64,000 bases of DNA, from IMG/VR virus record IMGVR_UViG_3300032291_002550, positions 436-64,435 of that record. One strand, written 5' to 3'. The DNA comes from a virus. Below the pieces are notes generated by a model. The model saw only the letters and a program-made list of their open reading frames with translations. It had not been told where the DNA came from and made no database searches. This document shows, piece after piece, positions 3,888 through 38,559 of this stretch (the stretch's first letter is position 1; each line of letters opens with the position of its first letter). The position numbers and the translations under genes were made by a program.

Positions 3888-5249
3888 ATGAGTCAAGATA
3901 GATTTACGCAGTACGGAAAAACCTTTCAATTAAAAATAATTGCAGCCCTTATAAAAGATAAAACATTTCTTCAACAAATATTCGATATTCTAATACCTGA
4001 ATATTTTGATTCTGAAGCTAATATTTGGATTGTAGATATTATCATGAAATACTTTCCAGAATATAAAACAGTACCTACATTAGAAGTATTTAAAGTAAAG
4101 GCGCTAGAACTTACATCTGAACCTTTAAAAATGTCTATCGTAGAATCTTTAAAAGATATATTAAGATATGTTGAAGCAGAAGATTTAGATTTTGTCAAAA
4201 CAGAATGTGTTAACTTTTGTAAAAATCAATGTATTAAAAAAGCTATTATCGAATCTGTTGAGTTATTACAATCAGGAGAATATGATAATATCAAAAAGAA
4301 AATTGATACTGCAATGAAAGCAGGAGCTAATCAAGATATTGGATTAGATTATTTAAAGGATGTTAAGCTTCGTTATGAAGAATCTGCTAGAATAACTTTA
4401 CCTACACCTTGGACTGCATTTAATGAATTGGTTGATGGCGGTATTGGTAAAGGAGAGCTTATTATATTTGTGGCAGGACCTGGTGCTGGTAAATCTACTT
4501 CGATGATTAATGTAGGAGCTCATTTATTAAGACAAGGAAAAACAGTAGTCCATTATACAATGGAATTATCAGAGCCCTATGTAGCTCAAAGATATGATTC
4601 AGTAGTTACTGGAATAGCAACAGCAAACTTAAAATATAACTTAGAAGAAGTTGAGCATGAATTATCAAAACTAAAAGGACAATTATATTTAAAGTTCTTT
4701 CCGACAAAAACAGCATCTGTAACGACATTAAAAGCTCATTTAGATAAAATGATAATGCAAGGAGTAAAACCTGATATTGTTATTGTAGATTATGCAGATT
4801 TATTACGTTCAGCAAAAGCAAAAGAAAAACTTCATGAAGAATTAGAAACTACATATGAAGATTTAAGAGGATTAGCCGGAGAATATCAAATACCAGTTGT
4901 TACGGCATCTCAAGCAAATAGATCTTCTGTAGAATCTGATATTATTACATCAGATCAAGTAGCTTCTTCATTTAGTAAGATTATGATTGGAGATGTTATT
5001 ATTTCATTAGCAAGAAAAACAACAGATAAGATTGCAGGTACAGGAAGAGTGCATTTTATTAAGAATCGTTTCGGGCCAGATGGATTAACATTACCAACTA
5101 AACTTAATATGTCAAATGGTAGAATTGATATGTATCAAGAATCATCTGTTAAAGGAAGAGAAACAAAAACAGAGATGGATGAAGATTCAGTAACACGAAA
5201 ATCTTTAGCTACAAAATATTCAGAACTTCTAGGAAATTCTCTAGGATAA
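3888..5249 (+). CDS. Replicative DNA helicase (DnaB / T4 gp41 family)
   Basis: Walker A IIFVAGPGAGKSTSM, RecA-like core, 453 aa, and a position next to the replication genes. Confidence 0.75.
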   Translation: MSQDRFTQYGKTFQLKIIAALIKDKTFLQQIFDILIPEYFDSEANIWIVDIIMKYFPEYKTVPTLEVFKVKALELTSEPLKMSIVESLKDILRYVEAEDLDFVKTECVNFCKNQCIKKAIIESVELLQSGEYDNIKKKIDTAMKAGANQDIGLDYLKDVKLRYEESARITLPTPWTAFNELVDGGIGKGELIIFVAGPGAGKSTSMINVGAHLLRQGKTVVHYTMELSEPYVAQRYDSVVTGIATANLKYNLEEVEHELSKLKGQLYLKFFPTKTASVTTLKAHLDKMIMQGVKPDIVIVDYADLLRSAKAKEKLHEELETTYEDLRGLAGEYQIPVVTASQANRSSVESDIITSDQVASSFSKIMIGDVIISLARKTTDKIAGTGRVHFIKNRFGPDGLTLPTKLNMSNGRIDMYQESSVKGRETKTEMDEDSVTRKSLATKYSELLGNSLG

Positions 5250-12711: not shown

Positions 12712-12728
12712 AATAAATAAAAAAAGTT

Positions 12729-32440: not shown

Positions 32441-32513
32441 ACTCAGATGGCGTAATTGGTAACGCGCCCGTCCTGGAGATGGGAAGATATAGGTTCGAAT
32501 CCTATTCTGAGTT
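32441..32513 (+). tRNA. tRNA (73 nt). Anticodon loop CCUGGAG, so Pro(UGG) in the canonical register, but position 33 is C
   Basis: Hand-folded. Acceptor actcaga/tctgagt, D-stem gcgt/acgc, anticodon stem cccgt/atggg, T-arm atagg-ttcgaat-cctat. No encoded CCA. Confidence 0.6.
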
Positions 32514-35428: not shown

Positions 35429-36223
35429 ATGAATAAAGAAAATAAAAAACTAGCCTTTAAAGGGTTTGATCGAGATTTAAAATGTAAAAATGTTCAATTC
35501 CGAATAGGAGATACGTTTACAACAGCTCATGCTAGCACTAATAAACCTCCAGCATTATGTTCAGCAGATGGTTATCATTATGGAATTACATTAAAAGATG
35601 TATTTGCTCATTATCCAGATAATAAAAGTAATCGTTTTTGTATTGTAGAAGTATCAGGGTTATATTCTGAAGATGGCCAAAAAGGTACAACGACATCTTT
35701 AAAGATAATTAGAGAATTATCAAAGGATGAAGTTATTAGACAAACGCTAGAAGAAAGTTTTGACTTAGAAACTTTAAAAGATATTCAAACACAATATCCT
35801 TTATGTCATGTAGGTGGAAGTATTGGATTATTTTTACATGGTGTTCGTTTAAAACGTTGGGCAGATAGTGGCTTATCTGATTTAGATTTAATCTTCCCTT
35901 ATTATATTGCTCCAGAAAGTACTGATAAATTAACATTAGATTTTTCAGCTGATAAAACATCTGGAAATGATTTTGATTATACGTTTTCCGTTAACGGAAT
36001 AAAGGTTGATGTAAAGATTGATAACATGCAGCGCTATGAATTAATTACATATAAGGGCTTTAAATATAAAGTAAGTCCTTTATTAACTATTCTTGAAGCA
36101 AAGATGAAATATGCCTTATTAGGACAATCAAAACATTCATCTGATATCAAAGAAATGATTTTGGGGCATAAAGAACCAAATATTATAGATATGAACTTAG
36201 ATGATCTTTTTTCTGGTTTATAA
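35429..36223 (+). CDS. Hypothetical protein
   Basis: 264-aa ORF. Confidence 0.45.
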   Translation: MNKENKKLAFKGFDRDLKCKNVQFRIGDTFTTAHASTNKPPALCSADGYHYGITLKDVFAHYPDNKSNRFCIVEVSGLYSEDGQKGTTTSLKIIRELSKDEVIRQTLEESFDLETLKDIQTQYPLCHVGGSIGLFLHGVRLKRWADSGLSDLDLIFPYYIAPESTDKLTLDFSADKTSGNDFDYTFSVNGIKVDVKIDNMQRYELITYKGFKYKVSPLLTILEAKMKYALLGQSKHSSDIKEMILGHKEPNIIDMNLDDLFSGL

Positions 36224-36225
36224 AT

Positions 36226-36723
36226 ATGAATAACGAACAACAAGAATTATTGGGTGATGCTTATGAAAATTGGTGTAAACAATTTGAAGTTGACCCGAAT
36301 AATTTTAATGGCGAAGAATTAGCGAATGGGCATAACGACCAATGCTGGGGTTATCCAATATTAGACCATGTTAAGCCTACATCAAAAGAATATAAAAGAG
36401 GACAAATAAATGCTTATTTAGAGGGTAAAGCCGAACAACCTTTTTTCTATTTAACACAAGAAGAATTTATCAACAAATGTAAAAACGATACAGAGTTCTC
36501 TGAAAGGTGGGGATTACAGATTGAAGAACGAGAGTTGAGTTTGGATGAAAGAGTTCATATTTTTAACTCAAAAATGATTAAGGAAGAAATTAGAACTCAA
36601 ATAGCAACGATTGGTATAGATAAGAGTTATTGGAAAAAATCATTAGAAGTAACTAAACATAATATACCAACACGCGCGGTCACAATAACATACAAAGATA
36701 AAAGTATAGAAAGTTATGAGTAA
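36226..36723 (+). CDS. Modular hypothetical protein containing peptide modules A and B that are also inserted into thymidylate synthase
   Basis: LTQEEFINKCKNDTEFSERWG (module A) then RELSLDER...NIPTRA (module B). Both recur in ORF 37330..38559 with ~80% DNA identity at the module ends. Confidence 0.5.
   Translation: MNNEQQELLGDAYENWCKQFEVDPNNFNGEELANGHNDQCWGYPILDHVKPTSKEYKRGQINAYLEGKAEQPFFYLTQEEFINKCKNDTEFSERWGLQIEERELSLDERVHIFNSKMIKEEIRTQIATIGIDKSYWKKSLEVTKHNIPTRAVTITYKDKSIESYE
36451..36513 (+). repeat. Module A, copy 0 (DNA repeat; the other copy is 37639..37701)
   Basis: ttaacacaagaagaatttatcaacaaatgtaaaaacgat... versus ttaacacaagaagaattcatcaacaaaatcaaaaccgat... Confidence 0.6.
36529..36678 (+). 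repeat. Module B, copy 0 (the other copies are 37951..38094 and 38287..38424)
   Basis: Conserved termini cgagagttgagtttggatgaaag ... aatataccaacacgcgcg. Confidence 0.6.
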
Positions 36724-36967
36724 AGTATATGTTAGATGGAATCCATTATATGAAAGAGTGGTATGTGTTCATTCGTCAGATGAATTAGAATGTGAAAAGT
36801 GCATTGAAGAACGAGAAAAAATAAAAAATACCCCATATACATTAAATGGTAAGTGGTTTGAAATTGATAGTAATAATAACCTATGTTATTGTGGAGATCC
36901 TGTTGATATGACTAATCCAGATTGTGTGGAATATAATTTATGTAAAGAACATTCAATGGATGTTTAA
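36716..36967 (+). CDS. Small Cys-rich protein
   Basis: 83 aa with CxxC-like pairs (CEKC, CYCG, C..C). Confidence 0.4.
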   Translation: MSKVYVRWNPLYERVVCVHSSDELECEKCIEEREKIKNTPYTLNGKWFEIDSNNNLCYCGDPVDMTNPDCVEYNLCKEHSMDV

Positions 36968-36994
36968 AATAAAAGAAAGTTATGAGTAAATAAA

Positions 36995-37291
36995 ATGAAT
37001 AATATACATAACGATTTAAATCATGTCTTAAATAAAGGTAATGGTATTGCATTAATTGTATCTATGGTAGAATGTCCTAAATGTGCTAAAGATATATGGT
37101 TAGAAATGGGAAGTCATTGTGGTTTTGACGCTAATTTAGATTTCGCAATTGACAATTATTGTTATGAGTGTTTTGAACCCATTAAATGTGTCTTTGACAT
37201 TGATGATATTAAAGACACCGGGTTTATCACTATATCAGATTATGGGAGTTTTACATCTAATAATTTTATAACAAATAAAAGTAAATTATGA
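36995..37291 (+). CDS. Small Cys-rich protein
   Basis: 98 aa with CPKC, CYEC. Confidence 0.4.
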   Translation: MNNIHNDLNHVLNKGNGIALIVSMVECPKCAKDIWLEMGSHCGFDANLDFAIDNYCYECFEPIKCVFDIDDIKDTGFITISDYGSFTSNNFITNKSKL

Positions 37292-37329
37292 GTGAAGAAA
37301 TAAAAGAAATATATTATAAAAAATAAAAG

Positions 37330-38559
37330 ATGAATAAATTAGATAAAGATTATTGTGACCTACTTCAAGATATTTTGGAAAATGGGACAAAAAAAGAAAC
37401 TCGTAATGGTGGAACTATAAGTGTTTTTGGTAGACAAATAAGACATAAAATGTCCGATGGATTTCCTTTGCTTACGACAAAGAAAATGTATATGAAAGGA
37501 ATTATAACTGAATTGTTATGGTTCTTACGTGGAGATACTAACATTAAATACTTAGTTGATAATAATTGTCATATTTGGGATGGTGATGCTTATAAGAATT
37601 ATTATAATAGAATGTGGAGTCTTAATCCTCTACCCAAGTTAACACAAGAAGAATTCATCAACAAAATCAAAACCGATGATGAGTTTGCTAATAAGTGGGG
37701 TGAGTTAGGACCAATTTATGGTAAGCAATGGAGAAGTTGGGAAACTAAGTATATTAAACCCAAAAGTCAATATGCGATTAAACCTAGTAATGGATGGCCA
37801 GATTCTATCAATATCGACCAAATCGCAAACCTAATCAACGACATTAAAACAAATCCAGACTCAAGACGATTAATGGTTAATGCTTGGAATGTGGGTGAAC
37901 TGGATTCGATGGTTCTTCCACCTTGTCATTATGGATTTCAAGTTTATACAAGAGAGTTGAGTTTAGAAGAGAGATGTGATGAATATATTAAAAGACACCC
38001 GAAAGAAACAAACGATGGAGTGTTAAATTACAAATGGATTGGTGATAATTTATGTACTCATGAAGATTACGATAAATGGAATATCCCAAAACGAGCAATC
38101 TCACTAATGTGGAATCAACGAAGCGTAGATACATTTTTAGGACTTCCTTTCAATATAGCATCTTACGGATTGTTGTTAGAAATCATTGCTAAGGCAGTTA
38201 ATATGGTTCCTGAAGAGTTAATTGGTAACTTAGGTGATACACATTTATATTTAAACCATATTGAACAAGCGAAGGAACAAATTGGGAGAGAATTAAGTTT
38301 AGATGAAAGGATTGATTTAGCATCATTAGATATACATTTCGATCCGTTTGATTTCGGCGTTGGTATGATATCTGCTGAGCATTCTCATAAAGTATGTGAT
38401 GATTATGGTATTCCAAAACGAACAAGACAACCTTATCCATTGCCAACATTAAGAATCTCTTCAGGTCCTTTAGATGATATTGCTCATCACGAAATTATGG
38501 ATTTTATATTAGAAAACTATCAATCACATCCATCAATTAAAGCTCCTTTGTCAAATTAA
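37330..38559 (+). CDS. thyA: Thymidylate synthase (ThyA) with three in-frame peptide-module insertions
   Basis: GELGPIYGKQWRSW, catalytic PPCH, DTFLGLPFNIASY (Asn conserved, so dUMP-specific), GDTHLY, C-terminal HPSIKAPL. 409 aa because of ~21-, 48- and 46-aa insertions. Confidence 0.85.
   Translation: MNKLDKDYCDLLQDILENGTKKETRNGGTISVFGRQIRHKMSDGFPLLTTKKMYMKGIITELLWFLRGDTNIKYLVDNNCHIWDGDAYKNYYNRMWSLNPLPKLTQEEFINKIKTDDEFANKWGELGPIYGKQWRSWETKYIKPKSQYAIKPSNGWPDSINIDQIANLINDIKTNPDSRRLMVNAWNVGELDSMVLPPCHYGFQVYTRELSLEERCDEYIKRHPKETNDGVLNYKWIGDNLCTHEDYDKWNIPKRAISLMWNQRSVDTFLGLPFNIASYGLLLEIIAKAVNMVPEELIGNLGDTHLYLNHIEQAKEQIGRELSLDERIDLASLDIHFDPFDFGVGMISAEHSHKVCDDYGIPKRTRQPYPLPTLRISSGPLDDIAHHEIMDFILENYQSHPSIKAPLSN

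Follow-up and report, generated by a model that had tools for sequence, protein, structure and literature searches.

We analyzed a 64,000-nucleotide (nt) stretch of AT-rich viral DNA (29.5% G+C), corresponding to positions 436 to 64,435 of the IMG/VR record IMGVR_UViG_3300032291_002550 and hereafter referred to as the window, in which a long thymidylate synthase gene, thyA (37330..38559), lies downstream of a small open reading frame (ORF) starting at position 36226. Our preferred explanation, to which we assign a probability of about 0.7, is that the encoded ThyA carries replaceable protein-coding surface cassettes that are specific to one phage ThyA lineage and its derivatives, the latter including ORF 36226, which we call mini-ThyA. 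A sequence-only reading of the same DNA had pointed to 2 kinds of repeated peptide modules, A and B, in both genes and had compared them to a small coding insertion element or, alternatively, to a mobile protein-interaction domain.

Five cassette sites in a conserved phage enzyme

Thymidylate synthase is one of the most conserved enzymes, and the window protein matches the corresponding Pfam family, PF00303, with 303 bits (1.8e-90) in 2 stretches broken by inserts, and the Escherichia coli enzyme (1qqq) with 9e-65 in 4 stretches; its best solved relatives are the thymidylate synthases of E. coli and Enterococcus faecalis. The PPCH (37918-37929), PFNIASY (38146-38166), and GDTHLY (38233-38250) motifs are all intact, and the coordinates bear out the earlier statement that the inserted segments spare them. 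Across 118 ThyA relatives, a sample chosen by similarity rank to the window protein, the PPCH cysteine and the arginines of DSRR and QRS are invariant, as are R25, R179-R180, and R264 (phosphate-binding), QRS/D, N275, and H305/Y307, all of which are found in the window ThyA. From these retained catalytic residues, we infer that the window ThyA has presumably remained an active enzyme. Profile hidden Markov models built from the relatives detected exactly 1 thyA and 1 ORF 36226-type gene in the whole window. The best-scoring ThyA homologues (365-513 amino acids [aa]; 58-77% identity over the full length) are encoded on contigs of up to 630 kb, and IMG/VR contains more than 590 loci with a long thyA of the window type. 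The window gene falls within this large clade, whose members are phage thymidylate synthases of the long type. Among deposited phage genomes, only 3 isolates of Flavobacterium phage vB_FspM_immuto encode this type of ThyA (~59-60% identity). Related proteins and related loci are designated below by P and L numbers, respectively.

The extra length of the window ThyA had been attributed to 3 insertions in surface loops. Alignment to the enzymes of E. coli, L. casei, and E. faecalis and to 117 relatives delimits 5 variable sites instead, listed here with the gene and module A:

37330..38559, plus strand: thyA, 409 aa, a single uninterrupted ORF with intact catalytic motifs (PF00303 at 1.8e-90)
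37603..37638, plus strand: V1 cassette (YNRMWSLNPLPK), flanked by GDAYKNY and module A; 7-59 aa, 85 distinct sequences in 118 relatives
37639..37701, plus strand: the ThyA copy of module A, by homology to L. casei-type enzymes a helix of the canonical small domain, not an insertion
37741..37812, plus strand: V2 cassette (ETKYIK..DSIN), after QWRSW; 96 distinct sequences in 118 relatives
37951..38097, plus strand: B1 cassette with anchors (RELSLEER .. NIPKRA), in the hairpin of strands FQVYT / AISLMWNQRS
38287..38424, plus strand: B2 cassette with anchors (RELSLDER .. GIPKRT), between ..EQIGRE and PYPLPTL
38452..38499, plus strand: V5 cassette (RISSGP..HEIM), after PLPTL; 12-40 aa, 77 distinct sequences in 118 relatives

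Module A aligns with the last helix (..FCDAILNDAEFAEKYGELG) of the "small domain" in thymidylate synthases of the Enterococcus/L. casei type, and V1 together with module A occupies the same site as that domain. In the latter enzymes, the small domain is a fixed lineage feature, whereas in the phage proteins the segment preceding the helix is replaceable, with dozens of unrelated alleles, and 4 further sites vary as well. In V2, the first 17 residues (query 140-156) are without a counterpart in E. coli ThyA.

Among the 118 aligned ThyAs, the backbone (290 columns) displays a median identity of 0.82, compared with a median of ~0.25 for the 5 variable regions, and the cassette interiors span 17-59 aa at B1 and 0-76 aa at B2. 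Each site is represented by 32-78 allele clusters, with a different combination in almost every ThyA. V1 is less than 40% identical in 32 of the 81 ThyA pairs whose backbones are at least 90% identical, near-identical cassettes are found on backbones merely 69-76% identical, and cassette identity is correlated with backbone identity at 0.16-0.27. By these measures, the alleles at the 5 sites assort independently of one another and of the backbone. Cultured phages provide an example: immuto 2-6A (L084, MW353175) and 3-5A (L164, MW353176) are 96-99% identical over the aligned regional DNA, but the whole V2 cassette of ThyA is replaced between them and the genes just downstream of thyA differ too, with the V2 difference being, on the evidence of the alignment, a recent swap.

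Within allele classes, the ratio of nonsynonymous to synonymous substitution rates (dN/dS) is 0.12 for V1 and 0.145 for B, at dS of 0.6-0.8, indicating that the cassettes encode constrained peptides. AlphaFold2 predicts the cassettes to be helical, and they are best pictured as small, mostly helical domains that would be exposed at the protein surface. The short conserved segments that bound the cassettes, here called anchors, display reduced synonymous diversity (0.49 of expectation in anchor codons versus 0.77 in the rest of the backbone; p = 4e-4).

B1 and B2, to judge from their common borders, are 2 acceptor sites of one family, bounded by RELSLEER and (N/G)IPxR(A/T). The resemblance of these modules to each other and to a third one in ORF 36226 is real and nonrandom, as the sequence-only reading had it. 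The sites at 36529, 37951, and 38287 are all the matches to the 23-nt consensus of the module B start in the 64 kb (at most 3 mismatches), compared with 0.01 matches expected by chance, and none of 100 shuffles yielded 3. A repeat search found the starts (36530, 37952, and 38288) to be alike at 79% DNA identity, and in a six-frame peptide scan of the window, RELSL[DE]ER and [NG]IP[KT]R[AT] occurred at the same 3 sites only. The B modules form a single family whose termini are conserved; the proposed 3' DNA consensus is approximate, with ATT instead of ATM in the third copy.

At B2, the 2 RE pairs around the insert both align to E. coli R222-E223, meaning that the insert is flanked by a two-codon duplication (AGAGAA at 38287 and AGACAA at 38425). 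Insertion-free relatives exist for this site and not for B1: among 78 IMG/VR relatives, B2 is filled in 68 and cleanly empty in 10, and B1 is filled in all aligned members. One relative (P0084, 462 aa) carries 2 tandem B units at B2, and another (P0028, 513 aa) contains an internal tandem duplication from GCNIWNGDAY to DSRRLMVN; together, the 2 cases suggest unequal recombination between repeated anchors.

Core-less ThyA paralogues and the shared alleles

ORF 36226 had been described as essentially modules A and B in tandem. It contains more matches to ThyA than these, namely, GDAYENW/GDAYKNY and the strands before (GLQIEE in mini-ThyA, GFQVYT in ThyA) and after (RAVTITYKDKS and RAISLMWNQRS) module B, and rather than being assembled from modules, it is a thyA derivative without the catalytic core. 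Comparison with the ThyA alignment using hhalign (probability 99.1%, E 1.1e-18) matched ORF residues 72-162 to ThyA 100-267, with one 77-residue gap over ELGPIYG..PPCHY; nothing of ThyA follows QRS, and the ORF has no Pfam match. Without the core, ORF 36226 is a homologue of thymidylate synthase and not an enzyme. Its parts are as follows:

36226..36723, plus strand: mini-ThyA gene (ORF 36226), 165 aa, a paralogue derived from thyA that lacks the catalytic core
36226..36273, plus strand: N-terminal helix and left V1 anchor (MNNEQQELLGDAYENW), predicted helix at residues 3-18; contains a 26-nt repeat 81% identical to the GDAYKNY region of thyA at 37582
36274..36450, plus strand: V1 cassette (CKQFEV..PFFY), 59 aa, poorly predicted, with predicted local distance difference test (pLDDT) scores of 44-65
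36451..36513, plus strand: module A copy (LTQEEFINKCKNDTEFSERWG), the right V1 anchor, 79% DNA identity to the thyA copy
36529..36678, plus strand: B cassette with anchors (RELSLDER .. NIPTRA)
36679..36723, plus strand: C-terminal strands VTITYKDKSIESYE and stop; predicted strands at residues 150-156 and 159-164

The 2 copies of module A (36451-36512 and 37639-37700) are 79% identical in DNA, in agreement with the ~80% originally estimated. The AlphaFold2 model of mini-ThyA has a mean pLDDT of 76.6, with values of ~90 or higher over most of the conserved blocks, that is, the N-terminal helix, module A, and the C-terminal strands.

A homologue search with mini-ThyA returned 2403 hits overall, ThyAs among them, and more than 70 of the matches listed are full-length mini-ThyA homologues of ~120-200 aa. 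The family consensus reads MNKEQQELLDEAYENW - [V1] - LTQEEFINKCKTDxEFSEKWG LKIEE RELSLxER - [B] - NIPTK LITITYNDKTIESYE. It keeps the N-terminal helix, both V1 anchors, the beta-hairpin strands, the B anchors, and the closing strand; the catalytic core is missing via 3 internal gaps, and with every catalytic segment absent, mini-ThyA cannot be a synthase. No family match was obtained for mini-ThyA in Pfam or PHROGs, no match by tblastn in 50,697 phage records, and no relative in 185,579 bacterial and archaeal genomes (GTDB). On the strength of these searches, mini-ThyA is an undescribed, metagenome-only family; searches of the full-text literature, with partial coverage, found no description of the cassettes or of mini-ThyA, and novelty is not thereby proven.

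In the related loci, 102 of 134 mini-ThyA genes are simple, complete ORFs that begin with a start codon; the other 32 are mostly fusions with N-terminal domains, with a few broken. In loci found with the mini-ThyA query, the genes often form tandem arrays of up to 8 (L006) immediately upstream of thyA and on the same strand, with different V1 and B alleles in each array member. Among 78 thyA loci picked irrespective of mini-ThyA, 6 contain a mini-ThyA gene within 5 kb, in all cases upstream and on the same strand. The N-terminal regions are modular, with several unrelated extension domains fused to the family core, for example, MNKETKFKVGDKAHKPKGYKFPC.. and MKIKKGKLNYDQSGRAYP.. (extended forms are found among the ORFs of L006, L022, L029, L035, L043, L049, L075, and L078); L075 also includes 2 A-B units within a single ORF. 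In some loci (L022, L029, L034, L038, L043, L051, L062, L077-L079, and L085), a thy-like gene of ~280 aa (PF00303 at 1.9e-59) that is free of cassettes takes the place of the long thyA downstream of the mini-ThyA genes; it might be a hydroxymethylase-type paralogue. We also considered B-only ORFs (P0241 and P0244-P0246) as an independent domain family and rejected this idea, given that the residues flanking the module (KEQI.R.. on the N-terminal side; ..TEPY or LIVVI on the C-terminal side) mark them as remnants of ThyA or mini-ThyA. One of them, P0245, directly follows an I-TevI-like gene, and in L034, a GIY-YIG ORF ends in the last 15 thyA codons.

The cassettes are shared between the 2 types of genes. 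Clustering of cassette interiors at 60% identity or more produced 18 V1 clusters and 24 B clusters (ThyA-B1 and/or ThyA-B2) spanning mini-ThyA and ThyA, and one B allele, H.[LI]ALPIWK.KYGPLADMMV.TNVDNTPY, was found at mini-B, B1, and B2. The idea that the same module recurs in ThyA and in stand-alone ORFs thus extends to individual alleles. The B1 allele of the window ThyA is also found in a mini-ThyA of L005 and in ThyAs whose backbones are ~80-86% identical to that of the window protein; the B2 allele is found at B1 of less closely related ThyAs (P0242 and P0243) as well as in distant mini-ThyAs (P0247 and P0248). As for the window mini-ThyA, its V1 allele recurs at V1 in full-length ThyAs that other phages encode (P0003 and L007), and its B allele occurs, within the sample, in other mini-ThyAs only.

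In 2 loci, the exchange has left tracts of high DNA similarity. In L018, mini-ThyA and thyA-B1 share 117 nt with 100% identity, exactly from GAGAGTTGAG (RELSL) to AATATCCCAACCA (NIPT), and the similarity ends outside this tract; in L061, a tract of 137 nt, 95% identical, extends from GDAYKNY to KWG. Since the L018 tract begins and ends in anchors, it indicates gene conversion, and the 2 tracts would both represent conversion events with breakpoints in the anchors. Together with the shared pools, they show that cassettes are exchanged among sites of one phage genome and also from one genome to another, the breakpoints being located in the short conserved anchors. Such exchange resembles anchor-mediated homologous recombination, not transposition.

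Little speaks for the prosaic alternative that these are fast-evolving, lineage-specific loops and that ORF 36226 is a piece of a thyA pseudogene undergoing decay, which we consider very unlikely. Loop insertions are indeed known to be tolerated by thymidylate synthases, the L. casei small domain being one, and remnant fragments do exist (P0241 and P0244-P0246; the thyA tail on the GIY-YIG gene of L034). However, the alleles are discrete and common to divergent backbones and sites, with a backbone correlation of just 0.16-0.27; dN/dS amounts to 0.12-0.15; and more than 100 intact mini-ThyAs share the same 3 gaps down to ~43% identity and have a confidently predicted fold.

The architecture of the locus recalls the Neisseria pilE/pilS and Borrelia vlsE systems, in which variable segments likewise lie in short conserved flanks, partial paralogues are located upstream, and conversion tracts end in the flanks, as do those of L018 (117 nt) and L061 (137 nt). 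Mini-ThyA genes could accordingly be imagined as donor cassettes for programmed variation of thyA, as pilS is for pilE: they precede thyA in the same orientation, as many as 8 in a row with differing V1 and B alleles, draw on the same pools, and share conversion tracts that end in anchors. Several features make such an archive improbable. The donors of a silent-cassette system are unexpressed and partial, whereas mini-ThyA genes are complete, apparently translatable ORFs (102 of 134) with start codons placed by a gene-junction motif (see below), conserved termini, and few pseudogenes. Donors would also accompany the gene regularly, but just 6 of the 78 thyA loci include a mini-ThyA gene within 5 kb, leaving 92% without one nearby. 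In addition, exchange is rare and anchors are not homogenized within genomes, V2 and V5 vary without donors, and mini-ThyA genes persist where the 280-aa thy-like gene replaced the long thyA. A further difference from pilE and vlsE is that the carrier is a viral metabolic enzyme.

Insertion elements and homing endonucleases

The sequence-only reading leaned toward a small in-frame insertion element, and some features of module B are those of an autonomous element of the kind of Rickettsia palindromic elements or miniature inverted-repeat transposable elements: the modules have in-frame lengths (150, 147, and 138 nt) and common termini, B2 is polymorphic for an empty site with a duplicated Arg-Glu, and B units stand in tandem in P0084. 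As with the Rickettsia elements, in-frame insertions of ~45-50 aa spare the active site. The modules differ from such elements in not being palindromic or dispersed, in their dissimilar interiors, and in their restriction to one gene family. Their DNA has folding z-scores of -2.2, -1.1, and +1.1, the ends do not pair, and the repeat search of the window found no inverted repeat pairing both ends of a module. Copies of B share an 8-aa start and a ~5-aa end, with unrelated interiors. All 3 copies in the window are in thyA or mini-thyA, and a permissive B-like pattern (start anchor, 12-85 residues, end anchor), which matches 81 mini-ThyAs and 32 ThyAs, occurs in none of the 6,969 other six-frame ORFs (528,000 aa) of 83 related loci. 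The absence of mini-ThyA relatives from the bacterial and archaeal genomes points the same way. The insertion-element reading is thus largely refuted and, on the evidence from the sequences compared, has next to no chance of being correct; the earlier alternative of a mobile protein-interaction domain comes closer to the evidence in its mobile-domain part.

Inteins begin with Cys, Ser, or Thr, end in His-Asn followed by Cys, Ser, or Thr, and measure at least ~130 aa, whereas the modules are 46-50 aa long, start with Arg-Glu-Leu, and end with Pro-x-Arg. The best Pfam match of the isolated B-module peptides had an E value of 0.079, and no endonuclease family was recovered. A td-type group I intron does not fit either: the window thyA is uninterrupted and is without an endonuclease ORF, and the Rfam scan of the window returned 1 tRNA only (32441-32513) and no group I intron.

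Thymidylate synthase genes are textbook targets of homing endonucleases, as exemplified by the td intron and I-TevI of phage T4 and by I-BmoI in thyA of Bacillus, and phage genes can be split by such endonucleases, as is nrdA of Aeromonas phage Aeh1 by mobE. Similarly, thyA of several relatives is split into 2 ORFs, at 3 or more sites in all, by free-standing I-TevI-like GIY-YIG, HNH, and NUMOD1/3 genes. These are located inside V1 (L072 and L073), at V2 (L001-3, L061, and L064), or just before PPCH (L025 and many fragments), and L028 contains an in-frame insert of ~290 aa at V2. Compared with the T4 td, I-BmoI, and mobE systems, no intron was detected by Rfam around the endonuclease genes of the relatives, the inserted units carry duplicated V1 anchors, and the window thyA is free of endonucleases. 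Thus, in the V2 and pre-PPCH splits (L001, L061, L064, and L025), the N-terminal half ends with ..DDELYEDYLKK*, like the left V1 anchor GDAYKNYLKK, and the C-terminal half carries another copy of module A at its start (M..KEEFLQKLKTDKEF..); in L072, the native V1 anchors flank the endonuclease. The DDELYEDYLKK* tail and the KEEFLQKLKTDKEF head might help the split ThyA halves to reassemble. The endonuclease unit appears to have arisen in V1 and to have moved to other sites with both anchors, which implies that a cassette can be carried to an ectopic position along with its anchors; the B1 unit may have been copied to the Arg-Glu site of B2 in this manner. In alleles bearing an endonuclease, YGKQWR is replaced by YGAGWR or YGHGWR. 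Upstream of thyA, 2 of these relatives also contain GOLLD RNA genes (L001 4003-4497 and L064 1233-1648; 179 and 277 bits), and ~20 tRNA genes and a transfer-messenger RNA gene are found in L001 (1-4700).

These observations raise the question of whether the cassettes themselves are in-frame remnants of endonuclease genes that invaded permissive loops of thyA, kept and diversified for breaking the recognition sites. In addition to the splits in V1, V2, and before PPCH, the ~290-aa insert of L028, and the V1 anchors flanking the endonuclease units, the altered YGKQWR motif in endonuclease-bearing alleles, the low synonymous diversity across backbone positions 90-195, and the position of the remnant P0245 next to an I-TevI-like gene would all be accommodated. 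Nevertheless, we regard this origin as unlikely. B1, B2, and V5 have yielded no endonuclease, B peptides no significant Pfam match (best E 0.079), and Rfam no group I intron; dN/dS of 0.12-0.15 is typical of a folded protein, as opposed to the drift expected for a spacer; and the intact, multiplied mini-ThyA genes are left unexplained.

Possible role of the cassettes and neighboring genes

In our preferred reading, that of replaceable surface cassettes, exchange would proceed by homologous recombination (gene conversion) guided by the short anchors, with the I-TevI-like and HNH homing endonucleases probably promoting it through double-strand breaks. B2 would be an ectopic copy of the B1 unit, placed at an Arg-Glu microhomology, and mini-ThyA would be a catalytically inert scaffold that displays the same cassettes, most likely with a diversifying role in protein-protein recognition. 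The many deep allele classes, purifying selection inside these classes, independent assortment, and multiplication of the scaffold into arrays suggest that the cassettes fit diversifying recognition surfaces; simple spacers or junk would not be expected to show these 4 features. A constant scaffold with interchangeable modules and spare copies nearby is likewise typical of polymorphic toxins and tail fibers undergoing module swapping; the ThyA modules differ in being internal loops rather than C-terminal domains, with no toxin, immunity, or receptor-binding function evident.

A more specific proposal, which we view as having an outside chance, is combinatorial display: ThyA, an essential enzyme, and the dead mini-ThyA scaffolds, multiplied into arrays, would present interchangeable folded cassettes that are shuffled by anchor-guided conversion and kept diverse by conflict. 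The opposing party would be a host immune sensor or inhibitor recognizing phage ThyA, or else the homing endonucleases, and mini-ThyAs would act as decoys or binders.

Several points weigh against the cassette explanation as a whole. No endonuclease was seen inside B1 or B2 of the relatives, and none in the window, so that the link of the B sites to endonucleases is by analogy. The anchors of mini-ThyA and thyA are no more alike in DNA within genomes (0.670 identity) than between them (0.673), and without concerted evolution, exchange must be sporadic rather than frequent. With mini-ThyA present in 6 of 78 loci and with V2 and V5 equally variable despite having no mini-ThyA counterpart, mini-ThyAs are not needed for the variability of ThyA. 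Ranking the sample by similarity to the window ThyA inflates the window's own allele clusters. Lastly, the AlphaFold2 model of the window ThyA with 118 relatives is poor (pLDDT 64; predicted template modeling score 0.42), and surface exposure of the cassettes therefore leans on the alignment to solved enzymes and on the textbook fold of thymidylate synthase.

Five assorting cassette sites, together with core-less paralogues that share them, suggest that a housekeeping enzyme can scaffold diversifying surface modules of a virus. Should conflict be what drives the diversity, phage nucleotide metabolism would be under an unrecognized pressure from hosts or selfish elements. Mini-ThyA adds a sizeable unannotated phage protein family, without Pfam, PHROG, or cultured representative, that gene callers and annotators mislabel or whose origin they miss. 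The anchor-bounded sites also show where 20-80 aa can be inserted into thymidylate synthase, which is of use in protein engineering.

The genes around mini-ThyA are joined by a motif, ..AAAACAATAGAAAGTTATGA(A/G)TAAAGAACAA.., in which the upstream gene ends with ..IESYE* and the next ATG lies inside the motif. In 823 kb of related loci (L005-L083), 256 copies of it lie on the coding strand versus 3 on the other, some of them after genes other than mini-ThyA. The last codons of the window mini-ThyA belong to this motif (match at 36709). We initially likened the IESYE end of mini-ThyA to the ENYQ of the ThyA C-terminus; this was dropped, as IESYE is part of the general junction motif and also follows unrelated genes. 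Three copies lie upstream of thyA, the first of them across the end of the mini-ThyA gene:

36699..36731, plus strand: junction motif copy 1 (..ATAGAAAGTTATGAGTAAA..), in which the mini-ThyA stop overlaps the next start codon
36965..36997, plus strand: junction motif copy 2, after ORF 36716..36967; 82% identical to copy 1 over 33 nt, with a stray "KESYE*"
37273..37300, plus strand: junction motif copy 3, degenerate, after ORF 36995..37291; 86% identical repeat

Elsewhere in the window, the motif is found at positions 12722 and 14305. Directly upstream of mini-ThyA, the window encodes a DUF7666 protein (35429..36223; 9.5e-20). In the immuto 2-6A genome (L084), 2 ORFs of 112-114 aa upstream of thyA (3889-4577) are named "amino acid transporter" and "ribonucleotide reductase beta subunit" in GenBank, names that look unreliable given this length; neither ORF is a mini-ThyA, and the immuto phages have no mini-ThyA gene near thyA. 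Between mini-ThyA and thyA, the window contains 2 Cys-rich ORFs, 36716..36967 (83 aa) and 36995..37291 (98 aa). Searches of the small ORFs neighboring mini-ThyA against Pfam and PHROGs gave nothing significant; the second Cys-rich ORF, with CPKC..CYEC, has a weak zinc-ribbon match (E 0.065). Because each of the 2 is followed by a copy of the junction motif, it is as if the small genes between mini-ThyA and thyA had been inserted by recombination in this motif.

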